A stretch of 38,572 bases of DNA from the UHGV virus genome UHGV-0071757. One strand, written 5' to 3'. The position numbers and the translations under genes are program-made. The notes below the pieces were generated by a model. That model did not search any database, was not told where the DNA came from, and saw only the letters and a list, made by a program, of their open reading frames with translations. This DNA comes from a virus. Positions 16,799 through 30,492 of this stretch are shown in pieces; within the stretch, counting starts at the first letter, position 1; every line of letters begins with the position of its first letter.

Positions 16799-19744
16799 AT
16801 GACAGACATTACAGCCAATGTTGTAGTGAGTATGCCTTCGCAACTCTTCACTATGGCGCGTTCTTTTAAAGCCGTAGCCAATGGCAAAATTTATATCGGT
16901 AAAATTGACACTGACCCGGTAAATCCTGAAAACCAGATTCAGGTTTATGTAGAGAACGAAGACGGTTCTCACATTCCTGTTTCGCAACCAATAATCATTA
17001 ACGCTGCTGGATATCCGGTATATAACGGACAGATTGCCAAATTCGTAACCGTGCAAGGCCATTCTATGGCTGTTTATGATGCGTATGGTACACAGCAGTT
17101 CTATTTTCCGAATGTGCTGAAGTATGATCCTGATCAGTTACGACAGCAATTAGAAGACCCAGATGGAGCGAATAAATACCCAAAACTTCAGATAGCAAGA
17201 TGGAGAGACAGTTATGATGTAAGAGGTTGGGGGGCTATTGGTGATGGTGTTCATGATGATACATCAGCTCTATCAGAATTACTTTCTGTTGCAACAGGTG
17301 GTGAAAAGATAGATGGGCGAGGGCTTACTTTTAAAGTATCAACTCTTCCAGATGTCAGTCGATTTAAAAATGCTCGTTTTTTATTTGAGAGAATACCGGG
17401 TCAGCCTCTTTTTTATGCTTCTGAAGATTTTATCCAAGGAGAGTTATTTAAAATTACAGATACACCGTGGTACAACGCCTGGACGCAGGATAAAACGTTT
17501 GTATATGACAATGTCATCTATGCGCCTTTTATGGCTGGAGACCGCCATGGTGTAAATAACCTCCATGTTGCATGGGTTCGCTCAGGAGATGACGGGAAGA
17601 CCTGGACAACGCCGGAATGGCTTACAGATTTACATGAAAACTATCCCACAGTTAACTATCACTGCATGAGTATGGGGGTTGTCAGAAATCGCCTTTTTGC
17701 TGTAATTGAGACGCGGACCGTGAGCGGAAATAAACTGCAGGTTGCAGAGTTGTGGGATCGCCCAATGAGTCGCAGCCTTCGCGTTTATGGTGGTATAACG
17801 AAAGCAGCAAATCAGCAAGTCGCTTATATTCGCATTACTGATCACGGATTATTTGCTGGTGATTTTGTCAACTTCTCAAACTCTGGTGTTACAGGTGTTA
17901 CCGGGAATATGACGGTGACTACTGTCATTGATAAAAATACTTTTACAGTTACGACGCAAAATACCCAGGATGTGGATCAGAATAACGAGGGTAGATACTG
18001 GAGTTTTGGTACATCATTTCACTCGTCACCATGGAGAAAAACCAGTCTTGGAACTATTCCTTCTTTTGTTGACGGAAGCACTCCTGTTACTGAGATTCAC
18101 AGTTTTGCGACGATTAGCGATAACAGTTTTGCTGTTGGCTACCATAATGGTGATATTGATCCACGCGAGCTTGGGATACTCTATTTCTCTGATGCTTTCG
18201 GTTCTCCTGGTAGCTTTGTTCGCAGACGCATACCTGTAGAATATGAGGCGAATGCATCTGAGCCATGTGTAAAATATTATGATGGCATTCTGTATCTGAC
18301 GACCAGGGGGACATTAAGTACTCAACCCGGTAGTTCATTGCACAGAAGCTCTGATTTAGGTACATCATGGAATTCTCTTCGCTTCCCAAATAATGTTCAT
18401 CACTCAAACCTTCCTTTTGCCAAAGTTGGCGATGAGCTGATTATTTTTGGCAGTGAGCGCGCATTTGGTGAGTGGGAAGGAGGAGAACCTGATAACCGTT
18501 ATGCAGGAAATTATCCAAGAACATTTATGACCAGAGTTAACGTCAATGAGTGGAGTCTGGATAATGTAGAGTGGGTTAATGTTACTGATCAGATTTATCA
18601 GGGCGGAATAGTTAACTCTGCGGTTGGTGTTGGTTCAGTTTGTATCAAAGACAACTGGCTGTACTACATTTTCGGTGGGGAAGACTTTCTAAACCCATGG
18701 AGCATAGGGGATAACAACAGAAAATATCCTTATGTTCACGATGGTCACCCGGCTGATTTGTATTGTTTCAGGGTGAAAATTAAACAGGAAGAATTTGTTT
18801 CAAGGGATTTTGTCTACGGAGCCACTCCTAACAGAACGCTTCCTACTTTTATGTCGACGTCAGGCGTGAGGACGGTTCCTGTACCCGTTGATTTCACAGA
18901 TGATGTTGCCGTCCAGTCACTGACTGTCCATGCCGGTACATCAGGACAAGTTCGCGCGGAAGTCAAACTTGAGGGTAATTACGCCATTATTGCGAAGAAA
19001 GTACCGTCTGATGATGTTACCGCTCAGAGATTAATCGTTAGCGGCGGTGAAACAACGTCTTCAGCAGATGGCGCAATGATAACGTTGCATGGTTCCGGAA
19101 GCAGTACTCCACGTCGCGCGGTATATAACGCACTCGAACATCTTTTTGAGAACGGAGATGTTAAACCTTATCTTGATAATGTAAATGCTCTTGGTGGTCC
19201 GGGAAACAGGTTCTCGACAGTTTATCTTGGCTCCAATCCTGTGGTTACCAGTGACGGAACATTAAAGACAGAGGCGGTCTCTCCTGACGAAGCATTGCTG
19301 GATGCCTGGGGTGACGTCAGGTATATCGCTTATAAATGGCTGAACGCTGTCGCTATAAAGGGGGAAGAAGGGGCGAGGATACATCATGGTGTAATCGCGC
19401 AGCAACTTCGTGATGTTCTTATTTCTCACGGACTCATGGAAGAAGAAAGCACAACATGCCGCTATGCCTTTCTTTGCTATGACGATTATCCCGCAGTATA
19501 TGATGACGTCATTACTGGCCAAAGGGAAATACCGCTGACTGATAATGACGGGAGCATCATTGTTGATGAGGATGATAATCCAGTGATGGTAATGGAAGAC
19601 ATCATTGAGCGCGTTGAAATAACGCCAGCAGGATCTAGATGGGGGGTCAGACCTGATCTCTTATTCTATATCGAGGCGGCATGGCAGCGCAGAGAAATAG
19701 AAAGAATAAAAGCTAGGTTAGACTTAATAGAAGGGAAGCACTAA
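16799..19744 (+). CDS. tailspike: P22-like head-binding domain + sialidase-like (endosialidase) domain + C-terminal intramolecular chaperone domain
   Basis: 981 aa. N-terminus [11 protein letters not shown]...[21 protein letters not shown] like P22 gp9. Two Asp-box motifs ([16 protein letters not shown]). C-terminal ~150 aa resemble autoproteolytic chaperone domains of endosialidases and tail fibres. Confidence 0.85.
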
Positions 19745-19897: not shown

Positions 19898-20639
19898 ATG
19901 TCAAGACTCAAGACTCAAGACTCAAGACTCAAGACTCAAGACTCAAGACTCAAGACTCAAGACTCAAGACTCAAGACTCAAGACTCAAGACTCGTTTTCC
20001 GTTGATGATAATGGGTCAGGTAATATTTTTGTATGTGGAGATCTTGTAAATAGCAAAGAGAATAAAGTTCAGTTCAATGGAAACAATAACAAACTTATTA
20101 TAGAAGATGATGTTGAGTGTCGATGGCTTACCGTAATATTTAGGGGTGATAATAATTACGTAAGAATACATAAAAACAGTAAGATTAAAGGTGATATTGT
20201 CGCAACAAAAGGTTCAAAAGTTATTATCGGTAGAAGAACGACAATAGGTGCAGGTTTTGAAGTCGTCACTGATAAGTGCAATGTTACAATTGGCCATGAC
20301 TGCATGATAGCAAGAGATGTTATTTTGCGTGCATCAGATGGGCATCCTATATTTGATATTCATAGCAAAAAAAGGATTAATTGGGCAAAAGATATCATTA
20401 TATCTAGTTACGTATGGGTAGGGAGAAATGTCTCTATAATGAAAGGGGTATCTGTTGGAAGCGGATCTGTCATTGGGTATGGGAGTATTGTAACTAAAGA
20501 TGTGCCATCTATGTGTGCAGCAGCCGGTAATCCAGCAAAAATAATAAAAAGAAATATAATATGGGCAAGAACGGATAAAGCGGAGCTAATTAGTGATGAC
20601 AAGAGATGCTCCAGCTATCATGCGAAGCTCACGCAATAA
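19898..20639 (+). CDS. neuO: phase-variable polysialic acid O-acetyltransferase NeuO-like; out of frame (OFF) in this sequence
   Basis: ATG 19898 is followed by 13 AAGACTC heptads encoding RLKTQDS repeats. The ATG frame stops at TGA 20003-20005. The hexapeptide-repeat acyltransferase body (frame ending 20639) lies in a different frame from the ATG. Confidence 0.85.
19903..19993 (+). repeat. (AAGACTC)x13 heptanucleotide tandem repeat
   Basis: Counted directly: 91 nt, 13 perfect 7-nt units starting 5 nt after the neuO ATG. Confidence 0.95.
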
Positions 20640-21016: not shown

Positions 21017-21062
21017 ATTCGTAATGCGAAGGTCGTAGGTTCGACTCCTATTATCGGCACCA
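21017..21062 (+). other. att site: 3' 46 nt of a tRNA-Thr(CGU) (thrW-type) gene, partial, not a functional tRNA
   Basis: attcgtaatgcgaaggtcgtaggttcgactcctattatcggcacca has anticodon loop CGT, T-arm and acceptor 3' strand plus CCA. The 5' acceptor strand needed for a complete tRNA is absent upstream. Confidence 0.8.
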
Positions 21063-21567
21063 TTCTAATGTCTCCCCAAGTCTACTCAAGTATTTAAAAA
21101 CCTCTTATAATCCGCATGTTAGCGCCCCTTTTAGTCTTTTGACGTCTACTTAAGTACCCCAAAATCTACAGTCAATTGGGGGTACTTTTGGGGGTATTTG
21201 CTGTTCGGTTTAGTGGAGGTACCCCCAAGTGAAACTCAATGCCCGTCAAATAGACACTGCCAAGCCAAAAGAGAAGGCTTACAAGCTGGCTGATGGTGGT
21301 GGTCTGTATCTCCTGGTAAAACCTAGTGGAGGAAAATATTGGCGCTTCAAGTATCGTGTAGCTGGTAAAGAGAAGCTGTTAGCACTAGGTGTGTATCCTG
21401 AAGTTACCTTGGCTGATGCTCGTGCAAAACGTGAAGAAGCTAAAAGGGGTATCGCTGGGGGTATCGATCCGATGGAAGCGAAACGAGAGGAAAAGATTGC
21501 CCGGGAAACGCAGTTAAACAACACCTTCAAAGATATTGCCCTTGAGTGGCACAGCAGCAAATTAAAA
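21047..21567 (+). repeat. direct repeat copy A (att core + int promoter + first ~112 codons of int)
   Basis: About 90% identical by eye to 38013-38519. Contains GGGGGTACTTTTGGGGGTAT-type motifs. Confidence 0.85.
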
Positions 21568-22443
21568 AAATGGTCTGCTGGTTATGCTTCAGACATCCTC
21601 GAAGCCTTCAACAAAGATGTGTTCCCTTACATTGGCAAAAAACCAATCGCCGAAATCAAACCACTTGAACTGCTGAATGTGCTGCGGCGCATCGAGGGGC
21701 GCGGTGCTACCGAAAAAGCCAAAAAAGTGAGGCAGCGATGCGGGGAAGTTTTCCGCTATGCAATTGTCACTGGACGTGCTGAGTATAACCCTGCACCGGA
21801 TCTCACCAGCGCGATGCAAGGTCATGAATCTAATCATTATCCTTTCCTCACAGCCAAAGAATTACCTGATTTTTTCAAGGCATTGTCCAGTTACTCAGGA
21901 AGTGCATTGGTTGTTATGGCGGCTCGTCTACTGATTATCACCGGTTTGCGGACTGGCGAACTGCGCGGTGCATTATGGGATGAAATCGATCTCAACAAGG
22001 CTATCTGGGAGATACCTGCTTCACGGATGAAAATGCGTCGCCCTCATGTGGTGCCTTTGTCTAAGCAGGCTCTTTCGCTTATTGGGCAGATTAAAGAATT
22101 AACTGGCAATTATCCGCTTATGTTTCCCGGCCGTAATGATCCAAGGAAAACAATGAGCGAGGCTAGCATAAACCAAGTATTTAAACGCATCGGCTATAAC
22201 GGAAAGGTTACTGGTCATGGATTCCGGCACACCATGAGCACCATTTTGCATGAGCAGGGCTATAACACCGCGTGGATAGAGACACAGCTTGCACACGTCG
22301 ATAAAAACTCAATTCGTGGCACATACAACCATGCGCAATATCTGGATGGTCGCCGGGAGATGCTCCAGTGGTATGCCGACTATATGGATTCGCTCGAGCA
22401 TGGCGGTAACGTGGTGCATGGCAAGTTCGGAAAATGTGGATGA
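21229..22443 (+). CDS. int: P4-family tyrosine integrase
   Basis: 404 aa, GTG start. N-terminal arm-binding-type domain (GGGLYLLVKPSGGKYWRFKYR) and C-terminal catalytic residues (HGFRHT ... RGTYNHAQY). Directly downstream of the tRNA fragment. Confidence 0.9.
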   Translation: MKLNARQIDTAKPKEKAYKLADGGGLYLLVKPSGGKYWRFKYRVAGKEKLLALGVYPEVTLADARAKREEAKRGIAGGIDPMEAKREEKIARETQLNNTFKDIALEWHSSKLKKWSAGYASDILEAFNKDVFPYIGKKPIAEIKPLELLNVLRRIEGRGATEKAKKVRQRCGEVFRYAIVTGRAEYNPAPDLTSAMQGHESNHYPFLTAKELPDFFKALSSYSGSALVVMAARLLIITGLRTGELRGALWDEIDLNKAIWEIPASRMKMRRPHVVPLSKQALSLIGQIKELTGNYPLMFPGRNDPRKTMSEASINQVFKRIGYNGKVTGHGFRHTMSTILHEQGYNTAWIETQLAHVDKNSIRGTYNHAQYLDGRREMLQWYADYMDSLEHGGNVVHGKFGKCG

Positions 22444-22565
22444 CTGGTTGCGTATACAGTAGTAGACTTTGAGCGACGAAAGAAAAGGCTGTGTCTAGGG
22501 TCGCTCCCGAAAATCCGTACACCTCGACGGACTGGTACAGCCACTACAGTAGAGGACGCTGAGGT

Positions 22566-23596: not shown

Positions 23597-23794
23597 ATGT
23601 CAAATACGCTTATTCGTTTAACAGAAGTTCAGCGTAGAACTGGATATAGCAAGGCATGGATTTATCGCCTTATGGGGCAAGGTAAATTTCCTGCATCAGT
23701 TAAAATTGGCTCGCGAGCTATTGCTTTCGTTGAGAGTGAAATTGACGAGTGGATTAATCAGCGTATTGCGGAATCACGCGGAACAGCTACCTGA
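23597..23794 (+). CDS. alpA: AlpA-family transcriptional regulator (excisionase-like HTH)
   Basis: 65 aa. LTEVQRRTGYSKAWIYRLMGQGKFPASVKIGSRAIAFVESEIDEWI is the AlpA/Vis-type signature. SD GAGGT upstream. Confidence 0.8.
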   Translation: MSNTLIRLTEVQRRTGYSKAWIYRLMGQGKFPASVKIGSRAIAFVESEIDEWINQRIAESRGTAT

Positions 23795-23871: not shown

Positions 23872-24672
23872 ATGAAATTTCCAAAAACGCCCGTACAGGG
23901 GCGGGGCTTCGTTCGGCCTGAAAACCAGAATCTGCAAAATTTCGGCGAAATTATCCCGATTATTTCCGGCGTTATTGGCGGGAGTGAAACCACTATTGTT
24001 AGCGCCAGAGCGTTACATAAGGCGTTAGGTGTAGGGCGCGTTTTCCGTTCGTGGATCAAGGGGCGCATTGAAGAATACGGGTTCACGGAAGGCGTGGATT
24101 ATGAGGTTGTTGAATATTTGAGCCGACCCGATCCGGTGAGCGCAAAATCTCGCCAGCAAACCGCTCTTGAGTACATCATCACAGTGAACATGGCGAAAGA
24201 ACTGGCGATGGTCGAACGTACCGAACAGGGCCGCGCCGTTCGCCAGTACTTTATCAAATGCGAGGAGGAGCTACACAAGGTAGCGCCAGTGCGTTCCGCA
24301 GCGTTACGCCGGGAACTGAAAGCCCGTATCTCCGTTGCCAGCTACTTTAAGCCGATGTGTGCCGCGCTGGAGGCGTACCGGGCTGAACTGGGTAAAAACA
24401 CACTCCAGCACCACTACACCACGGAAGCCAATATGCTGGCGCGTATCGTGCTGGGTGGCATGACTGCAAAACAGTGGACGCAGGCGAACGGCATCACAGG
24501 CGAACCACGCGACCACATGAGCACGTTGCAGCTTGAGCACCTTTCTTACCTTGAGCAGAGCAATATCACGCTGATTGAGTTAGGCCTGGACTACCACCAG
24601 CGGAAAGCTGAATTAATTCGTCTTTCGCAGCGTTGGTTAGCCCGTCGCATGGAGGAAAACAGCCATGTGTAA
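23872..24672 (+). CDS. AntA-like antirepressor-domain protein
   Basis: 266 aa. Motif ARALHKALGVGRVFRSWIKGRIEEYGFTEGVDYEV resembles the AntA/AntB N-terminal domain as I recall it. Confidence 0.55.
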   Translation: MKFPKTPVQGRGFVRPENQNLQNFGEIIPIISGVIGGSETTIVSARALHKALGVGRVFRSWIKGRIEEYGFTEGVDYEVVEYLSRPDPVSAKSRQQTALEYIITVNMAKELAMVERTEQGRAVRQYFIKCEEELHKVAPVRSAALRRELKARISVASYFKPMCAALEAYRAELGKNTLQHHYTTEANMLARIVLGGMTAKQWTQANGITGEPRDHMSTLQLEHLSYLEQSNITLIELGLDYHQRKAELIRLSQRWLARRMEENSHV

Positions 24673-25344
24673 CGCTCTGACCGTTACAAAAAGAGAAAGC
24701 GCCCCGTTGCCGGAGCGCCTTTGTGAACGAATAGCCTACTGCGCCATATTGCTTACTGTCTACGAGGCAGATTATAGCGTTGTGGTCGCACAGAGTGAAG
24801 GCGCTGATCACCGTTACTACAGCACGCCAGAAATGCAGAATATTTTGCTGCAAAATGTCGTTGGTCACGCTGTCCGGAAAGCAAAAAATTTTGCTGGTGG
24901 CGCGACTGATGCGATTTTGTCAGGTCGCAAGGTGATGATCAATCTGATGTCTAATTTCGTTCTGGATAAAACAAAGGCGACCGCAGAGGGCCACCAGTGG
25001 GAAAGCTACACACTTGAACACATCGCCAACAATGCCAGATTTGCGGCTGGTGGGCAATGTGATCAGTGTGTTGGCTTGCTGGTGGGCTATTCCTGCTCTT
25101 TAACATTGCCATGCCGCGATGTTTTCCAGGTATGCGACCCCATTTTTGTGCGCCTGTACTCTTTAAGGAATTTCTCAAGGATAAACGCACAGGGCGCGAA
25201 TCTGTCTGACTCATATTCGTACGTTATCTTTCTGCGCTGTCTTTTCCGTGCCGGTGATGGTGTATTGGTCGATTCTTTGTTGGTCATTCTGTGTACCTGT
25301 AAAGCAATGCGCCGGAGTTCCTCACACCACGGCGATGATAGTTA

Positions 25345-25650
25345 TTATTCTGATTCTTTGGCCTTGCGGCGCTGGAGTTCTTCACGTGCGACGGTGACGA
25401 GCTGCCCGATCTCCTCGACAGCTTTGACTCCGATTTTTTCCACCTGCGCCAGTGCATTGAGCGAAGAAACCAGGGGATTTTCTCCGCTTCCTTCTGCCTG
25501 GCGGCGGGCGATCTCACCACGCATGGCGGTTACTATGAATCCGGCGTTGCTTTCGCCGTCCAGTTTTACGGATTCCATGCCTTCAAAAGCATCATGTGGG
25601 ATACGAATTGAAATCTGTTTTGATTTGTCGTTGATAGTGTTTTTTGCCAT
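25345..25650 (-). CDS. putative ribbon-helix-helix transcriptional repressor
   Basis: Start taken at the ATG with SD TAGGAGA 7 nt upstream (MAKNTINDKSKQISIRIPHDAFEGMESVKL...). Beta-strand/helix pattern typical of RHH, helical C-terminus. Divergent from the downstream operon. Confidence 0.6.
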   Translation of the reverse strand: MAKNTINDKSKQISIRIPHDAFEGMESVKLDGESNAGFIVTAMRGEIARRQAEGSGENPLVSSLNALAQVEKIGVKAVEEIGQLVTVAREELQRRKAKESE

Positions 25651-25672
25651 GTGCATTCTCCTAAACAAAAGA

Positions 25673-25748
25673 TGTGATTCAGTATACACAAAAAAGAATC
25701 ACAAAAAATACTTGACCTGTGATTCAGTTAAATTTAATTTAAATCACA
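25673..25748. promoter_or_regulatory. two palindromic operators (TGTGATTCAG-N-GAATCACA) in a divergent promoter region
   Basis: O1 25673-25702 and O2 25719-25748, with a TTGACC -35-like hexamer between them. Located between the RHH gene and the 25838 operon. Confidence 0.55.
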
Positions 25749-25837
25749 CCTCAGTAAGAGGATATAAACGACAACGCCCCGAACTGTTTGCGGCAGTAGC
25801 GGGGCGTCTAACCAAACCGTTAAATGAGGTAACGATT

Positions 25838-26203
25838 ATGGCTGGGGCACAGCATACCCAAACTCACCCTAAATTTATATACACCTTCTTGGCGGTGCAC
25901 CGTGATTGCATGGCTGACGGTAAAAACACTGTTCATGTAGCCGCCGATACGCTGGTTGATGCCTGCGAGATGCTCAATGACATGGGCTATATCTCGGCAA
26001 CATGGAAAGGGCGCGAAGAAAACACGTTGTTTATTCAGAAATGCGAAAACAATTTTATCTGGCGTTTTATCGCCCTGAGTACGGCACAACCGCGCGTGAT
26101 TCACATCGAGGCCACCAGCGAACAGGAAGCACGCCAGCAATCTCCTGATGGCTGCGTGATGGTATTCGCTGCCCGTATTCGCCAGGAGGTGGAGCATGTG
26201 TAA
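25838..26203 (+). CDS. hypothetical protein (first gene of replication/regulatory operon)
   Basis: ATG 25838 with GAGG SD 8 nt upstream, 121 aa. It is the in-frame 3' part of the 512-aa ORF in the track. Confidence 0.55.
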   Translation: MAGAQHTQTHPKFIYTFLAVHRDCMADGKNTVHVAADTLVDACEMLNDMGYISATWKGREENTLFIQKCENNFIWRFIALSTAQPRVIHIEATSEQEARQQSPDGCVMVFAARIRQEVEHV

Positions 26204-26420
26204 TGCAACATGGCCTGATGCAGCGGTAGACGCTATCAAAACGCTGATGGATTCACTTATTGAGATTTCTGCTATCGCTGGTGTGGCGCATAAACACGCA
26301 GCCAGAGAATCAGAATGCATCTCCCATTATTTAGCATTTGTGCAGCTGAAAGCCGATCAGGCACTGGATAAGGCCGGAAAAATTATCATGGCTGATGTAC
26401 AGGAGGTGCACCATGCATAA
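26196..26420 (+). CDS. hypothetical small protein
   Basis: 74 aa. Start overlaps the upstream stop (ATGTGTAA). Confidence 0.45.
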   Translation: MCNATWPDAAVDAIKTLMDSLIEISAIAGVAHKHAARESECISHYLAFVQLKADQALDKAGKIIMADVQEVHHA

Positions 26421-26778
26421 CCTGTCAATTTCTGACCTTAACAGCATTCAGTTTGACGAGATATTTTCCGGGCAGCTACTGGTCAACGTGGAGAATGGAC
26501 GCGTGGTAAGTAATTATCACCTGCCGGATGGTGCAATTGCCGGAAGCGTTGAAGCATTGCTGGAACTGGCGGAACGTGCGCGACTGATTAAGCCGTCAAC
26601 GTGCCATCACGATGATGATCTGCATTTTACCGGGTGTATGGTGAGTCACTACGAAAACGGCGTTGAAGTATCCTGCGAACGTCTGCGTGATGATTGCTGT
26701 TTCGGCACACTGCCGGAATTTATCGAATTGCTGACCAGTTGCGGTTATCAGGTCATTCAGGGGGGTAAACATGCGTGA
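26413..26778 (+). CDS. hypothetical protein
   Basis: ATG 26413 with AGGAGG 7 nt upstream. Overlaps the previous stop (ATGCATAA). Confidence 0.55.
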   Translation: MHNLSISDLNSIQFDEIFSGQLLVNVENGRVVSNYHLPDGAIAGSVEALLELAERARLIKPSTCHHDDDLHFTGCMVSHYENGVEVSCERLRDDCCFGTLPEFIELLTSCGYQVIQGGKHA

Positions 26779-27004
26779 TGATCGTTTTAATTCCCTGAAA
26801 CAGGAGTTTGATGGCGCACCGGAAGATACATCGGGCGCATTGTTGAGCATTGCTGACATGATGAAAGCTGCATATTTTCTTATCAATACCATTGGCTACA
26901 AGTCAGAGGGTGAAATGATTCTTAGTATTGCGTCGGACTATGCTGAATATGTGGCAGAGACGCGTTACAGAAGAAAATCTCTGGAGGATGTAAGCCATGC
27001 ATAA
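26771..27004 (+). CDS. hypothetical small protein
   Basis: 77 aa. Start overlaps the upstream stop, suggesting translational coupling. Confidence 0.5.
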   Translation: MRDDRFNSLKQEFDGAPEDTSGALLSIADMMKAAYFLINTIGYKSEGEMILSIASDYAEYVAETRYRRKSLEDVSHA

Positions 27005-27197
27005 TCATGAAGCGCATGTACCCGTAGTGCTTAATGTGCCAGATGATTTCACCGGACGCGTGCTGGTTTACCTTGATAAAGAAAAAGTGAAATCACAATG
27101 CCGACTGAAAAGTAATGAGATTGTGGGTTCTCCTGAATTTTTTTCTGAACTCTGTATTCGTGCAGAAATAAAACCGGAACTGCTGACAGGAAAATAA
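26997..27197 (+). CDS. hypothetical small protein
   Basis: 66 aa. Start overlaps the upstream stop (ATGCATAA). Confidence 0.45.
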   Translation: MHNHEAHVPVVLNVPDDFTGRVLVYLDKEKVKSQCRLKSNEIVGSPEFFSELCIRAEIKPELLTGK

Positions 27198-27201
27198 AAC
27201 C

Positions 27202-27492
27202 ATGAAAAGGAAAAATTCTGGCTTTACTGCCAGCGGTCTCTCTCGGCCTGAAATCAGACACGGAGATATTTACCGCGACACCAGACGTGGGGGACGAGTG
27301 GTTATTCGTCACGTTACGCCAGGCAATATCACCTACCGCCGTGAGGCTTACGAATATGACTGCGTAATGCCGCGCCGTCAGTTTGAGCGTGATTTTATTC
27401 TGGTGGAAAACAAACAACAGGCAGTGGCGAGACGTGCAGCCACGAATATTAAAAAAATCCGGGCAATGTTGGTTGCGGGAGGTAAGAAGTGA
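27202..27492 (+). CDS. small basic protein, possibly DUF4222-like
   Basis: 96 aa. RGGRVVIRHVTPGNITYRREAYEYDCVMPRRQFERDFILV resembles small proteins found upstream of primases in P4-like islands (recall, low confidence). Confidence 0.5.
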   Translation: MKRKNSGFTASGLSRPEIRHGDIYRDTRRGGRVVIRHVTPGNITYRREAYEYDCVMPRRQFERDFILVENKQQAVARRAATNIKKIRAMLVAGGKK

Positions 27493-29294
27493 AAAACGCA
27501 CCGAATTTAAAATATCAGCCGAAGGATAAATTCACCGAGGTAATCATTTTTGCCGGGACGGATGCTTACGCCCATGCTCAACACTGGATTGAAAGCGAAG
27601 GACGAAAACACGGCGATAACGTGCCTCCTGTTTACCTGGGGCCAAAGCAACTGGCAGACCTGGCGAATATCCGCATTGTCGACGATGAACGCCGCTTTGC
27701 GCGTGTCTATCTCGCGGGGGAGATAGAGCCAATCCAGATCAATGCTATTGCTGAAAAGCTGGCGCTGGCTGGTGTACAGGACGCGAAATTATACAAAGGT
27801 ATCACCGACCGGGAGCCGGAAAACTGGCGCGACTACCTGCAACGGATCCGCGAACAGGCAGAGAGTGGGGAAGTTTCAGCGATGAAATTAGCCACAAAAA
27901 ATATTGACCTATCCAGGCCAGCACTAAATCAGATGGGAGCCAGCCAGAGAGGGGAAGTGTTACTTGAATATTATGGAAGAGCACTGGCTATAAATGATGA
28001 TTCTGATGTAGTTCACCATTACAACGGAATTGTCTGGGTGCCTGTATCTGATAAGGAACTCCAGCGGTCTATGGCGAAGATTTTTATTGATGCTGGAATC
28101 AGTTATTCGCAAAACGCCATTAAATTTGCCGTAGACACAATGAAATTGAGCCTGCCTGTTATGGGCGGGGCAGACAGGAATCTTATTGGATTCAGTAACG
28201 GGGTATTTGATACCCGGACGGGAAATTTTCGGGAGCATAACAAAAATGACTGGTTGTTAAATGCCAGTGAATTACCGTTCAGCCCACCAGCAGAGGGGGA
28301 AACGCTGGCAACACATGCGCCGAATTTCTGGAAGTGGCTGCGTCGTTCGGTGGCAGATAATGATCGTAAAGCTGATCGCGTACTGGCGGCATTATTCATG
28401 GTGCTGGCGAACCGGTACGACTGGCAGTTATTCCTTGAGGTAACAGGCCCAGGCGGAAGCGGTAAAAGTGTGATGGCTGAGATTTGTACCATGCTGGCGG
28501 GTAAGGCCAACACAGTATCGGCAAGCATGAAGGCTCTGGAAGACGCAAGGGAACGCGCGTTAGTAGTTGGCTTTTCGCTGATTATCATGCCGGATATGAC
28601 TCGCTACGCTGGCGATGGTGCAGGAATTAAGGCAATTACTGGCGGCGACAAGGTGGCAATTGATCCGAAACATAAAGCCCCCTACTCCACACGTATTCCG
28701 GCAGTAGTGCTTGCGGTAAACAATAACGCCATGTCATTCAGTGACCGAAGCGGGGGGATCTCGCGTCGTAGGGTGATATTTAATTTCTCTGAGGTCGTAC
28801 CGGAGAACGAACGCGATCCCATGCTGGCGGAAAAGATAGAAGGCGAACTGGCGGTAGTGATTCGCCATTTGCTAACACGATTTACCGACCAGGACGAAGC
28901 TAAAAGACTACTTTATGAGCAGCAAAAATCAGAAGAAGCGCTGTTGATAAAGCGCGAAGGTGATTCACTGGTGGACTTTTGCGGCTATCTGATGTCGTTG
29001 GTTAAATGTGAAGGAATGATGGTGGGCAATGCGGAAATAGTGCCATTTAGCCCGAGGCGATACCTGTATCATGCTTATTTAGCCTATATGTCAGCGCATG
29101 GCCTGGGAAAACCAGTATCACTGACACGCTTTGGTACTGATATGCCAGGAGCTATGGCGGAATACGGAAAGGAGTATAAGCGGGCTAAATGCACTAAAGG
29201 CCCGGATAAAGGGCGAGTGATAACAAATGTTCTGTTAGATGATGATGCTGATGGCTGGTTGCCAGCAGCTACAGGGATTAACGACAGAACATAA
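27489..29294 (+). CDS. primase/helicase-like replication protein (D5-N/P4-alpha C-terminal type, P-loop NTPase)
   Basis: 601 aa. Walker A TGPGGSGKS preceded by a region resembling D5_N/primase C-terminal domains. Followed immediately by the iteron array. Confidence 0.75.
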   Translation: MKNAPNLKYQPKDKFTEVIIFAGTDAYAHAQHWIESEGRKHGDNVPPVYLGPKQLADLANIRIVDDERRFARVYLAGEIEPIQINAIAEKLALAGVQDAKLYKGITDREPENWRDYLQRIREQAESGEVSAMKLATKNIDLSRPALNQMGASQRGEVLLEYYGRALAINDDSDVVHHYNGIVWVPVSDKELQRSMAKIFIDAGISYSQNAIKFAVDTMKLSLPVMGGADRNLIGFSNGVFDTRTGNFREHNKNDWLLNASELPFSPPAEGETLATHAPNFWKWLRRSVADNDRKADRVLAALFMVLANRYDWQLFLEVTGPGGSGKSVMAEICTMLAGKANTVSASMKALEDARERALVVGFSLIIMPDMTRYAGDGAGIKAITGGDKVAIDPKHKAPYSTRIPAVVLAVNNNAMSFSDRSGGISRRRVIFNFSEVVPENERDPMLAEKIEGELAVVIRHLLTRFTDQDEAKRLLYEQQKSEEALLIKREGDSLVDFCGYLMSLVKCEGMMVGNAEIVPFSPRRYLYHAYLAYMSAHGLGKPVSLTRFGTDMPGAMAEYGKEYKRAKCTKGPDKGRVITNVLLDDDADGWLPAATGINDRT

Positions 29295-29665: not shown

Positions 29666-30208
29666 ATGGGGCAAAGCATGACTAAGCTGACCATTAACAG
29701 AAAACCAAAAGGTATTTACGGCACGCCGCAGAAAACGACGCAGGCGGCACAGGAGCAGGATAAAACCACATCGGCGCATAAAGTGATGCCCGGTAACCAG
29801 AAAGCGCAGCAGAAGCCTACAGGGGCGACACCGTGGCGGCATATGACCAAACGCCAGCGCAAAAACCGCAGGCGCGTTAACCGCCTCACTGAGTTGTGGC
29901 CTGACTTATTCAGCCGGGAAGCACTGAAGCCGCTTAAGGTGGGGATATTCGACGACCTGATGCAGGATCTCGCCGTCAGGGGGCTGGCATTCGGGCCAGG
30001 GGCATTGCGTGCGACGCTGGCATCTTATGCGCAGTGTCCGCGCTATTACCGCGCCTTAATGGCTGGTGGGGTACGCTACGACCTGAAAGGCCAGCCGTGC
30101 GGCGAGGTGACACCACAGGAACAACAGGACGCAGAAACGCGGCTGGTGGCGCTGAATGAGAAGCGCAAACGCCAGCGCCGGGCAGCAAAGGAGACAATAG
30201 GCGCATGA
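29666..30208 (+). CDS. ProQ/FinO-family RNA-binding protein
   Basis: 180 aa. LTELWPDLFSREALKPLKVGIFDDLMQDL...RYDLKGQPCGEV matches the FinO/ProQ N-terminal domain pattern. Basic N- and C-terminal tails. Confidence 0.7.
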   Translation: MGQSMTKLTINRKPKGIYGTPQKTTQAAQEQDKTTSAHKVMPGNQKAQQKPTGATPWRHMTKRQRKNRRRVNRLTELWPDLFSREALKPLKVGIFDDLMQDLAVRGLAFGPGALRATLASYAQCPRYYRALMAGGVRYDLKGQPCGEVTPQEQQDAETRLVALNEKRKRQRRAAKETIGA

Positions 30209-30492
30209 TTCACGACAGCAAAGCGGAAGCACTGGAAGCGCGTGGTCTGTACCGGAGAGCGGCGGCGCGGTGGGCTGAGGTCATCATGCTGGCGAATGAT
30301 GACAAGGCACGGGAACAGGCGGCAAAACGTCGCGCGGAATGTATCCACAAGGCAGCACGCCCACCAGCAAGGCAGGATAATTTCGGGGAGATGCGCGAAA
30401 CCATCAGCCGGGCACATGCCGGGATGGGATTACATCAGCCCAATGGTGAGGCATTCAGGAAATACCAAAAAAAGAACAATTGTAGTCAGTAA
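30205..30492 (+). CDS. PerC-family transcriptional regulator
   Basis: 95 aa. SKAEALEARGLYRRAAARWAEVIMLANDDKAREQAAKRRAECI resembles PerC-type activators. Overlaps the upstream stop. Confidence 0.65.
   Translation: MIHDSKAEALEARGLYRRAAARWAEVIMLANDDKAREQAAKRRAECIHKAARPPARQDNFGEMRETISRAHAGMGLHQPNGEAFRKYQKKNNCSQ

Follow-up and report, generated by a model that had tools for sequence, protein, structure and literature searches.

A YlcI/YnfO-family protein as a candidate repressor of the replication operon in an AlpA-containing phage satellite of E. coli

The window analyzed here, the whole stretch of 38,572 bp of the virus genome UHGV-0071757, contains an island which has a tRNA-Thr 3′ fragment on its left side and shows the gene order of Gram-negative PICIs, namely integrase, alpA and primase (Table 1). 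The same order was found in the related loci. Capsid, portal and terminase genes were not detected between 21 kb and 37 kb, as is characteristic of a PICI, and a second copy of the tRNA fragment (the right att) was not found in the window, even with three mismatches allowed. A CUS-3/HK620-like (P22-type) prophage resides in tandem at the same tRNA site, which is circumstantial as to the helper. While alpA and the AntA/AntB-type gene have the same direction as the replication operon, with no plus-strand terminator predicted between 24672 and 25838, the opposite strand of the island harbors as its only gene the one for a 101-aa protein. A 66-aa ORF downstream of it, which is probably co-transcribed, matched phrog_21027 and recurred with unchanged spacing in 46 related loci, mainly from E. 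coli and IMG/VR (49-100% identity), often in truncated form; it gave neither a Pfam nor a toxin-family match. The terminator-like hairpin further downstream is likely the end of the leftward transcript.

Divergently from the 101-aa gene, an operon extends on the plus strand from 25838 to 29294, beginning with an icd-like gene and continuing with five small ORFs, the last of which encodes a DUF4222 protein, up to the primase/helicase gene. In every related locus that was examined, a homologue of the icd-like gene stands first among the ORFs. A preliminary description of this DNA had reported such an operon of overlapping small genes ending in the primase/helicase gene, a minus-strand RHH-like gene with a textbook Shine-Dalgarno sequence, and the coexistence with AlpA. 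We recovered each of these elements, the RHH fold as a structure prediction. The leader of the rightward transcript contains two hairpins. The first one exhibited fold z-scores of -2.9 (sense) and -3.3 (antisense) as well as base-pair covariation, with a U-rich tract behind it when read on the minus strand. The loop of the second one contains the ribosome-binding site GAGG (25826-25829), and compensatory changes were seen in three of the four pairs of this hairpin, with 98.6% of the cells paired. The Rfam models of the immunity RNAs C4 and isrK did not reach the gathering threshold anywhere in the window or in 17 related loci, and both were absent from 25640-25900 at E values up to 10; a CI immunity RNA was likewise not found. 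The model of the R1162 antisense RNA matched weakly (19 bits, E 0.4). AT-rich stretches between the sites described below and a structured leader in front of replication genes also resemble plasmid copy-control regions.

Table 1. Location of genes, putative control elements and other features within the window
Feature	Position	Strand	Remarks
tRNA-Thr 3′ fragment, attL side	21017-21062		46 nt; on the left of the island
Tyrosine integrase of island	21229-22443	+	
alpA	23597-23794	+	points towards 3′ end of repressor gene
AntA/AntB-type antirepressor gene	23872-24672	+	points towards 3′ end of repressor gene
Terminator-like hairpin	24696-24721	minus	strong; 11 pairs and T-run
66-aa small ORF	25087-25287	minus	basic N-terminus; 57 bp downstream of repressor gene; annotated in locus L001
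Candidate repressor gene, 101-aa YlcI/YnfO-family protein	25345-25650	minus	ATG 25650-25648
Shine-Dalgarno AGGAGA of repressor gene	25657-25662 (+ strand coordinates)	minus	7 nt before ATG; read from sequence
Half-site D, TGTGATTC	25673-25680	+	inside 11-bp repeat TGTGATTCAGT; position kept in 19 loci
-10 TATACT, leftward (ylcI-like) promoter	25681-25686	minus	alignment
Half-site C, GAATCACA on + strand	25696-25703	minus	between leftward -35 and -10
-35 TTGACC, rightward (icd-like to primase) promoter	25712-25717	+	alignment
Half-site B, TGTGATTC	25718-25725	+	in 11-bp repeat 25718-25728; adjoins -35, fills rightward spacer
Putative -10 TAATTT, rightward promoter	25735-25740	+	17 bp after -35; weak, 3/6; read from sequence
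Half-site A, AAATCACA on + strand	25741-25748	minus	directly past -10, over predicted rightward transcript start
Leader hairpin 1, rightward transcript	25774-25807	+	inverted repeat; GC-rich outer stem and inner stem
Leader hairpin 2, CGTTA/TAACG	25818-25834	+	just before icd-like ATG at 25838
icd-like gene, first of rightward operon	25838-26203	+	121 aa; C-terminal Icd-like domain (NCBIfam NF033153, 81 bits)
Five overlapping/abutting small ORFs	26196-26420, 26395-26778, 26771-27004, 26997-27197, 27202-27492	+	
Primase/helicase gene, last in operon	27489-29294	+	D5_N, DUF5906, Pox_D5; P4-family primase C-terminal domain

The 101-aa protein belongs to the YlcI/YnfO family (NCBIfam NF041551; 64.9 bits versus a cut-off of 30), residues 9-50 spanning all 42 positions of the model, and its RefSeq orthologue WP_001526649.1 carries this name. 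Its predicted fold, strand-helix-helix within approximately 45 residues, is that of an RHH protein, the DNA-binding domain being N-terminal (about residues 10-55) and followed by a long helix at 59-100 in the C-terminal part. A significant match to a curated RHH profile was not obtained; only PF07704 (Rv0623-like) scored, with 15.9 bits versus a cut-off of 28.3, and the same profile was weakly matched by ten of 19 homologues. Sequence and profile searches of the PDB revealed no RHH protein among the matches. The sole near-match there was a helix-hairpin-helix segment of Hef aligned to residues 45-86 (E 0.011), for which AF2 predicts a continuous helix. With hhalign, QISIRIP was paired with QFNLRWP of Arc (probability 23%) and HFNFRMP of Mnt (2%), both of which are low values. 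In single-chain models the 'ribbon' appears as coil, as expected for a strand that pairs only within a dimer. Mean column entropy amounted to 1.65 bits at positions 11-15 and 17 of the predicted recognition strand (KQISIRI, K11 to I17) versus 0.73 bits in the rest of the fold, while R16 and P18 are invariant; the variation thus concentrates on those residues that are predicted to read the DNA. The C-terminal part is strongly conserved across genera and helpers. Short 59-aa forms made up of the RHH domain alone fill the same slot in other loci, together with matching sites. Domain searches of the 101-aa protein disclosed no recognizable self-cleavage domain, and neither a second YlcI-like gene nor extra operator copies were found in the neighboring prophage. 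Our literature searches found no functional study of YlcI/YnfO or of an RHH repressor in PICIs or cf-PICIs. The protein is a candidate for the repressor of Gram-negative satellites of this kind, which had not been identified previously.

The spacer between the divergent genes extends from 25651 to 25837 and comprises 187 bp, slightly less than the 190 bp given before. It contains two copies of the 11-bp repeat TGTGATTCAGT (25673-25683 and 25718-25728) and two of AATCACA (25697-25703 and 25742-25748). The two palindromic units that had been described are present, though with ends shifted by one position (25673-25703 and 25718-25748 instead of 25673-25702 and 25719-25748). Together they make up four TGTGATTY half-sites starting at 25673(+), 25696(-), 25718(+) and 25741(-), with spacings of 23, 22 and 23 bp. 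On both strands of the window this motif occurs five times compared to 4.5 expected copies, but four of the five lie within 76 bp, a clustering that is not due to chance. Outside of 25673-25748 the window harbors no further site except for one isolated TGTGATTT at 27090.

Both promoters of the spacer were read by eye, as a consensus scan called neither of them. The rightward -35 column shows TTGAC in 13 of the 19 loci, the others having TTGnn or TTAAC; the orthologous -10 regions in loci L004, L008 and L002 are TAACAT or TAAAGT (four of six positions). At the leftward -10 position, TATACT, TATAAT, TATATT or TATAGT was found in 13 of 19 loci, whereas the corresponding -35 region (ATTTTT, 25704-25709) is poor, which is why the scan missed this promoter. 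Half-site D is situated immediately past the leftward -10, at or near the predicted transcription start; the places of the other half-sites are given in Table 1. Sites inside the spacers and over the predicted starts of both promoters constitute, as far as the promoters are correctly placed, a geometry of repression. The two palindromes had been suggested as operators of a switch controlling the replication operon. Not both of them, however, belong to the rightward promoter: each pair of half-sites brackets the -10 region of one of two putative back-to-back promoters, and the unit 25673-25703 was therefore assigned to the repressor's own promoter, suggesting autoregulation.

The same architecture was encountered in 18 related loci of Escherichia, Klebsiella, Enterobacter, Edwardsiella, Serratia, Yersinia, Erwinia, Xenorhabdus, Photorhabdus and Phytobacter. 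In the segment scanned for each locus (132 nt, from nt -135 to -4 before the start codon), four repeats are located at approximately 34, 57, 79 and 102 nt, and the -35 TTGAC and -10 TATAMT hold their positions. Approximately 830 of 5,426 complete E. coli genomes match this region, and the module is also present in Klebsiella, Enterobacter, Yersinia, Serratia, Xenorhabdus and others. A comparison of 44 distinct control regions, drawn from related loci in about ten genera, showed fixed promoter elements and a half-site sequence that varies together with the beta-strand. The strand KQISIRI is paired with TGTGATTY (E. coli, Edwardsiella, Klebsiella), QLTTVRV with TGTGTTTC (E. coli, Xenorhabdus, Photorhabdus), QSLTARI with TGTAAG (Enterobacter, Klebsiella), QQ(L/I)NARF with GG(T/G)ATTCA and Q(L/V)KN(I/V)RI with TGTGTATTTA. 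This relationship was evaluated by an alignment-free categorical test with label permutation, in which pairs of loci were examined for a common 7-mer repeated three or more times. In the first set such a 7-mer was shared by 18 of 27 same-class pairs but by none of 144 different-class pairs. After addition of IMG/VR loci (44 distinct regions) the figures were 109 of 173 versus 4 of 773, a contrast reached by none of 2000 label permutations. The test replaced a partial Mantel test on naive residue-by-residue identity, which was not significant (r 0.11; reached by 741 of 5000 permutations), because a per-residue measure was judged unsuitable when site classes may differ by one base and beta-strands by six residues. 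The beta-strand codons and the sites share one cassette of approximately 170 bp, and part of the co-variation could reflect linkage. The orientation of the half-sites differs by class, being + - + - in the window, + + - - in Erwinia and + + - + in Yersinia, and site C is degenerate or absent in some loci, which is unusual for a fixed protein-DNA assembly. The fact that the site sequence follows the beta-strand across genera while the promoters stay the same argues for the earlier assumption that the repeats are operators of the RHH protein.

Taken together, we consider it likely that the 101-aa protein is an RHH repressor that acts through the four half-sites to shut off the replication operon and its own gene. 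That the protein binds these sites, that it represses instead of activating, and in which oligomeric state it acts are inferred. Repressor dimers would insert the N-terminal beta-strand K11-I17 into the major groove at the TGTGATTY half-sites, which at distances of 22-23 bp (about two helical turns) would be presented on approximately one side of the double helix, and the long C-terminal helix probably joins the dimers into a higher oligomer. Occupation of sites B and A would fill the spacer and cover the rightward start, so that the RNA polymerase would be excluded from the icd-like-DUF4222-primase/helicase operon and the integrated satellite kept from replicating. Sites C and D around the -10 TATACT would provide negative autoregulation. 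Standing alone on its strand, the repressor gene could remain active in an otherwise silent island. Together, the beta-strand and the four half-sites may represent an exchangeable specificity ('immunity') cassette, of which at least seven types would exist among satellites of Enterobacterales. Repression might be lifted by helper-inducible alpA-antA transcription that crosses the convergent repressor gene and enters the operon, i.e., by a bypass combined with antisense interference, or else by an antirepressor protein.

More tentatively, and with clearly less confidence, it is conceivable that RHH proteins of the YlcI/YnfO type are the missing immunity repressors of many Gram-negative PICIs and cf-PICIs. 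The cassette of approximately 170 bp (N-terminal arm, beta-strand and four operators) might then set at least seven immunity types and replace the RNA-based immunity of the P4 type. The helper would act by inducing AlpA and not by binding to the repressor, with AlpA-driven antisense transcription running through the repressor gene into the operon, and the leader with its two covarying hairpins, perhaps aided by an antisense RNA, would provide an additional block of the icd-like gene at the level of translation.

The preliminary description had gone further, proposing a master repressor of the satellite analogous to those that are inactivated by helper-phage proteins, in effect an Stl-like model. 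Control of the replication operon agrees with our reading. However, as no further sites exist in the island, control should be limited to this operon and the repressor's own gene, leaving int and alpA outside. In favor of the Stl-like model, the gene is divergent from the replication operon, as in SaPIs (PMC6092414), the apparent lack of a self-cleavage domain would require an SOS-independent inducer, and a P22-type prophage is present in tandem at the same tRNA site. On the other hand, the C-terminal part of the protein is well conserved across genera and helpers, whereas Stl proteins are very diverse, and induction of Gram-negative PICIs has been shown to proceed via helper-dependent expression of the activator AlpA (PMC6092414). 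We therefore regard the full Stl-like model as unlikely; a bypass by AlpA-driven read-through is at least as plausible as inactivation by a helper protein.

A protein that binds the same sites as an activator or architectural factor in replication, excision or packaging, or that governs copy number like CopG in the lytic phase only, is distinctly improbable. Positive or architectural roles are known for the RHH proteins AmrZ, TraM and ParG, and the AT-rich DNA between the sites, the structured leader and the weak R1162 match would suit copy control. But the sites occupy the spacers and predicted starts of both promoters, a geometry that fits repression, and the gene, as the only one on its strand, could be active in the silent island. 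Even less probable is an autoregulated antitoxin of an addiction pair, with the 66-aa ORF as the toxin and control of the replication operon as a mere side effect. For a type II toxin-antitoxin system a cognate toxin gene would be expected always to adjoin in the same operon, whereas this ORF is often truncated, has no toxin-family match and is missing from most of the non-E. coli loci (Xenorhabdus, Klebsiella, Edwardsiella, Serratia, Enterobacter). Moreover, two of the four sites occupy the divergent operon's promoter and would be superfluous for an antitoxin, and the module always faces a replication operon in the related loci.

Least probable of all is that another factor, be it AlpA, a host protein reading TGTGA such as CRP or a replicase recognizing origin iterons, binds the repeats and the small protein is unrelated to them: TGTGA...TCACA resembles CRP half-sites, but the gap amounts to 21 instead of 6 bp, site sequences as different as TGTAAG, GGTATTCA and GAGATAC would be intolerable to a host factor, the same sites occur beside three unrelated types of replicase, and the site sequence changes in step with the beta-strand of the neighboring protein. 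PICI origins do consist of iterons on either side of AT-rich DNA (PMC6092414). Replicase iterons were rejected as the same site type accompanies D5_N/DUF5906 in the window and Toprim/DUF927 in loci L013 and L014. The Icd-like protein was likewise discarded as site binder, being nearly identical in loci L015, L016, L019 and L020, which harbor four different site types.

If the 101-aa protein is indeed the repressor, a widespread module is governed by a simple repressor protein whose recognition code can be read, and the uncharacterized YlcI/YnfO family would receive its first function. Satellites of this kind could be sorted by sequence into immunity groups, and a natural set of orthogonal repressor/operator pairs would become available. 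The cooperation of the repressor with AlpA in satellite induction would become testable.

In E. coli K-12, YlcI (DLP12) and YnfO (Qin) share the N-terminal domain family NF041551. Unlike the protein studied here, they are short and encoded in late regions of lambdoid prophages. CopG of pMV158 is an RHH repressor of a replication-gene promoter next to a structured leader or antisense element, a situation that recalls the one in the window. However, copG is co-transcribed with repB and not divergent, CopG comprises 45 aa without a C-terminal domain, and its system possesses the antisense RNA II, whereas an antisense RNA at our locus is conjecture. Stl proteins are larger helix-turn-helix proteins, and the stl/rpr genes are co-directional with int; here, int and alpA are opposite to the repressor gene and an RHH fold is predicted. 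Inactivation by helper proteins has been shown for Stl/Rpr. What the two systems share is a gene divergent from the primase/replication operon and, in our reading, an island kept quiescent (PMC6092414). Among the AlpA-based Gram-negative PICIs, EcCICFT073 and EcCIMP1 are of the same island type (int-alpA-(Bro/AntA)-primase-PerC) and contain AlpA. EcCIMP1 is moreover integrated in the same region, at thrW next to proA, but has been described with an Ash-family protein, a YlcI-like gene being unmentioned (PMC11773190).

In terms of position, the proposed repressor takes the place of RNA-based immunity. In P4-type satellites, the segment separating the alpA/Bro zone from the replication operon carries an immunity RNA (PMC10111431). 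The CI RNA of P4 and the c4 RNA of P1 occupy the same slot with the same presumed role of keeping the early or replication operon off, but at our locus a protein and DNA operators are found in their stead. In P1 the c4 RNA is located directly upstream of the icd gene. The nearest parallel among protein repressors is provided by Mnt and Arc of the immI region of P22. Neither shows significant sequence similarity to the 101-aa protein, they use one compact operator instead of four half-sites two helical turns apart, and they control an antirepressor instead of an Icd-like and replication proteins. Nevertheless, as proposed for our protein, they are small RHH repressors with operators within a divergent promoter pair, a repressor gene facing the controlled operon and autoregulation; in Mnt the RHH domain is followed by a C-terminal helical oligomerization domain, and the prophage neighboring our island is itself of the P22 type.

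The 187-bp spacer between the ATG of the candidate repressor gene and the first plus-strand ATG (25838) was searched for repeats, which yielded two copies each of TGTGATTCAGT (25673 and 25718) and AATCACA (25697 and 25742). These repeats define four TGTGATTY half-sites (A-D). The motif has five copies in the whole window, against a chance expectation of 4.5, and all but one of them fall inside 76 bp. Thus, the gene, its Shine-Dalgarno sequence and the repeats noticed in the preliminary description are real and not a product of chance, albeit the coordinates had to be shifted by one base. Two promoters lying back to back in the spacer were read from the sequence and from an alignment of 19 orthologous control regions. 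In other loci the counterpart of the rightward -10 region is TAACAT or TAAAGT. As neither was called by a consensus promoter scan, their assignment is based on conservation and reading by eye. The 76-bp unit as a whole is twofold symmetric about position ~25710, and the location of the half-sites in the spacers and over the starts of both promoters implies that both are repressed.

Features of the satellite island, its control region and the adjoining prophage
Feature	Position	Strand	Remarks
P22-type prophage late region	1-21000		close to CUS-3 and HK620; upstream of island
Endosialidase (K1-capsule) tailspike and hexapeptide acetyltransferase genes	16799-19744; 20304-20639		prophage genes
tRNA-Thr 3′ fragment (46 nt)	21017-21062		prophage-island junction
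Integrase gene	21229-22443	+	first in island gene order, followed by an unknown ORF
int-alpA RNA motif (RF02996)	22488-22555	+	just 3′ of integrase gene
alpA	23597-23794	+	after unknown ORF
antA (AntA/AntB-type antirepressor)	23872-24672	+	after alpA
Predicted terminator	24696-24721	-	strong
66-aa ORF	25087-25287	-	57 bp downstream of repressor gene; phrog_21027; basic N-terminus KRQRRK
Candidate repressor gene	25345-25650	-	single opposite-strand gene of island
C-terminal half of repressor (residues 57-101)	25345-25480	-
Half-site D	25673-25680	+	over leftward start
Leftward -10, TATACT	25681-25686 (+ strand coordinates)	-	conserved
Half-site C	25696-25703	-	in leftward promoter spacer
Leftward -35, ATTTTT	25704-25709	-	poor
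Rightward -35, TTGACC	25712-25717	+	TTGAC in 13/19 loci
Half-site B	25718-25725	+	in rightward promoter spacer
Rightward -10, TAATTT	25735-25740	+	weak; 17-bp spacer after -35
Half-site A	25741-25748	-	over rightward start
icd-like leader	25774-25845	+
icd-like ORF	25838-26203	+	121 aa
Array of overlapping small ORFs	25838-27492	+	between repressor and primase-helicase genes
D5_N/DUF5906/P4-type primase-helicase gene	27489-29294	+	after small-ORF array
ProQ/FinO-family RNA-binding protein and PerC-family regulator genes	29666-30492	+	after primase gene

Homologues of the repressor fell into 214 clusters, all from Enterobacterales or metagenomes. We compared 11 loci from reference genomes, 8 obtained by exact-protein look-up and 80 from IMG/VR. 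Wherever gene calls were available, the YlcI/YnfO-type gene faced an operon that comprises small ORFs, DUF4222 and a replicase, and had alpA and int behind it; the replicases belong to three unrelated types (D5_N/DUF5906, Zn-ribbon/Toprim/DUF927 and AAA_25). A de novo repeat search of a 132-nt segment (-135 to -4 relative to the start codon) revealed an 8-mer that nearly all loci carry in four (at times three or five) copies, positioned at ~34, 57, 79 and 102 nt of the segment. The repeat sequence varies from locus to locus and tracks the beta-strand (residues ~11-17) of the YlcI/YnfO-type protein, by which the loci were grouped into classes. The same slot is also taken, with matching sites, by short 59-aa forms that comprise no more than the RHH domain.

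Beta-strand classes of YlcI/YnfO-type proteins and their half-sites
Beta-strand	Half-site	Found in
KQISIRI	TGTGATTY	E. coli, Edwardsiella, Klebsiella
QLTTVRV or QLFTVRV	TGTGTTTC	E. coli, Xenorhabdus, Photorhabdus, Serratia
QSLTARI	TGTAAG	Enterobacter, Klebsiella
QMTT(I/L)RV	GAG(A/G)TAC or GATATAC	E. coli, Yersinia, IMG/VR contigs
QQ(L/I)NARF	GG(T/G)ATTCA	E. coli-like metagenome contig, Phytobacter
Q(L/V)KN(I/V)RI	TGTGTATTTA	Erwinia, contig labelled Martelella
QMKNIRF	GTGTAC-like	E. coli

Pairs of loci were compared without alignment for a common 7-mer that occurs three or more times in both. Among 19 loci such a 7-mer was present in 18 of the 27 same-class pairs and in none of the 144 different-class pairs; same-class pairs across genera scored 15/21, different-class pairs within a genus 0/7. 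With 44 distinct regions the values were 109/173 and 4/773, respectively, which none of 2000 label permutations reached. A naive Mantel test of per-residue identity against sites was not significant, its measure being unsuited to these data because some classes differ by one base but six residues. Since the beta-strand codons are only ~60-150 bp away from the sites, linkage contributes to the association. Linkage leaves unexplained why only the DNA-reading residues and the 8-10-bp sites vary. Alignment across loci is still possible at the promoter hexamers, at the ribosome-binding site and in the flanks on either side. The Icd-like protein was discarded as specificity partner, as a near-identical first ORF accompanies four site types in four E. 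coli loci, and so was the replicase, as one site type was found with different replicases. The preliminary description had proposed a repressor acting on two palindromic operators. Its repressor-operator part is well supported by the comparative evidence and probably correct, whereas the two palindromes have given way to four half-sites on two promoters.

The orientation of the half-sites differs between classes (+ - + - in the window, + + - - in Erwinia, + + - + in Yersinia; control regions L003, L005, L018 and L020), while a spacing of 22-23 bp is kept in all patterns. The related locus L018 shares its beta-strand heptad with the E. coli QMTTIRV group, but has a different N-terminal arm and the half-site GAGGTAC instead of GAGATAC, a change of one base. 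In E. coli ECA64 (L101, 1945-3126) two tandem cassettes were found, each comprising a 59-aa YlcI/YnfO protein, a 67-75-aa ORF and only three sites of its own type, GTGTATTTCA and TGTAAGACA. The first cassette has kept a leader remnant, and the arrangement suggests duplication or stacking of an immunity module.

The repressor gene starts with ATG at 25650, 7 nt downstream of AGGAGA. Its product was assigned to the YlcI/YnfO family (NCBIfam NF041551; 64.9 bits, cut-off 30) and to phrog_6522 and phrog_949, for neither of which a function is known; the sole Pfam match, to an RHH antitoxin family, was below threshold. The full-length AF2 model, with which Foldseek gave no match, shows an extended N-terminus, helices 19-28 and 35-54, and a long helix 59-100. 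By hhalign, QISIRIP was placed onto QFNLRWP of Arc with low probability; in this register Q12, S14 and R16 would point to the DNA. We thus regard the protein as a probable member of the RHH superfamily on account of its predicted fold, not of sequence statistics. Among the homologues, variability peaks in the N-terminal arm and at positions 11-15 and 17, the latter with 1.65 bits (mean of the rest, 0.73 bits), R16 and P18 being invariant. The C-terminal half is strongly conserved across genera (invariant L60, S62, S63, L64, L67, E71, I73 and G74) and shows similarity to a helix-hairpin-helix segment in the Hef nuclease (E 0.011), while the AF2 model makes it one long helix; it is a candidate oligomerisation helix or a candidate second DNA-binding motif.

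According to the mechanism we propose, RHH dimers would sit on the four half-sites, two helical turns apart, probably joined by the 42-residue C-terminal helix, whose ~60 Å are about the distance of neighbouring sites. Occupancy would shut the rightward promoter of the operon from the icd-like gene to the primase gene as well as the repressor's own promoter. Being the single gene on the opposite strand, the repressor gene could be expressed while the rest of the island is silent. Its transcript probably takes in the 66-aa ORF and ends at the minus-strand terminator. This ORF has no Pfam match; it lies at the same distance from the repressor gene in 46 related loci (49-100% identity, some copies truncated) and is missing from most non-E. 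coli loci.

The suggestion of a master repressor inactivated by helper proteins is speculation. Between the stop codon of antA and the operon, no plus-strand terminator was predicted. In P4, transcripts that start at the late promoter upstream of the alpA homologue continue across the Bro-zone gene into the replication operon (PMC10111431), and in EcCICFT073, AlpA, expressed in a helper-dependent manner, activates the island (PMC6092414). We therefore regard relief of repression by AlpA-driven read-through as at least as likely as relief by an Stl-style antirepressor. Such a transcript would skirt the repressed promoter, crossing the repressor gene in the antisense direction.

The icd-like leader contains two conserved hairpins, also at the equivalent place in the related loci L002-L020, with an invariant CTAACC between them and the ribosome-binding site in the loop of hairpin 2. 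Compensatory changes affect 8 of 13 pairs (reached by 0/500 shuffles; slid controls ≤3). A U-rich tract comes after hairpin 1 on the minus strand, where this hairpin could thus end an ~85-nt antisense RNA across the icd start. The leader weakly matches the R1162 plasmid antisense RNA model (RF00043; 19 bits, E 0.4) and also occurs alone in E. coli islands lacking the long YlcI-like gene. ProQ/FinO proteins typically have antisense RNAs as partners, and the ProQ/FinO gene of the island may be relevant to this structured leader; its position with the PerC gene behind the primase gene is common to other E. coli PICIs. In most related loci the icd-like ORF encodes ~62-72 aa; here only the last ~50 residues match the Icd-like model, and RefSeq treats the orthologue in the E. 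coli locus L001 as a partial pseudogene. The PHROGs label 'transcriptional repressor' of the matching families seems to be an inherited annotation, not evidence.

By gene content (int-alpA-pri, structural genes being absent) the island is a classical Gram-negative PICI. The int-alpA RNA motif scored 45.5 bits (gathering score 35.8) and was also detected in the related loci L006, L007, L013 and L018. Near-identical islands in other E. coli (L001) adjoin tRNA-Thr (thrW) downstream of proA, the region occupied by the published PICI EcCIMP1 (PMC11773190). Within the window, a P22-type prophage of the CUS-3/HK620 kind precedes the island; as the tRNA-Thr fragment joins them, prophage and satellite form a tandem at thrW. 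A P22-type phage is likewise the published helper of the similar EcCIMP1.

We found no paper giving YlcI/YnfO a function or reporting that Gram-negative PICIs have an RHH repressor; in a 2026 survey, 'YlcI/YnfO, prophage-associated protein' is no more than an entry in a list of cf-PICI genes (PMC13612085). The region is matched by about 15% of complete E. coli genomes, by some of them partially. An autoregulated RHH repressor at divergent promoters is a familiar kind of mechanism; here it would occur in a family without assigned function and in an element class without identified repressor. The module has no obligate adjacent toxin as toxin-antitoxin systems do, and its protein differs from Stl-type repressors in two defining features, strand arrangement and fold. 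It takes the slot of the CI/c4 RNA immunity of P4 and P1, and in P1, too, RNA immunity precedes icd; a C4 or isrK RNA was not found by an Rfam search of the window and 17 related loci. In biological role, that immunity and the Stl/Rpr repressors of Gram-positive PICIs come nearest, while in architecture the nearest analogue is the Mnt/Arc immI switch of P22.
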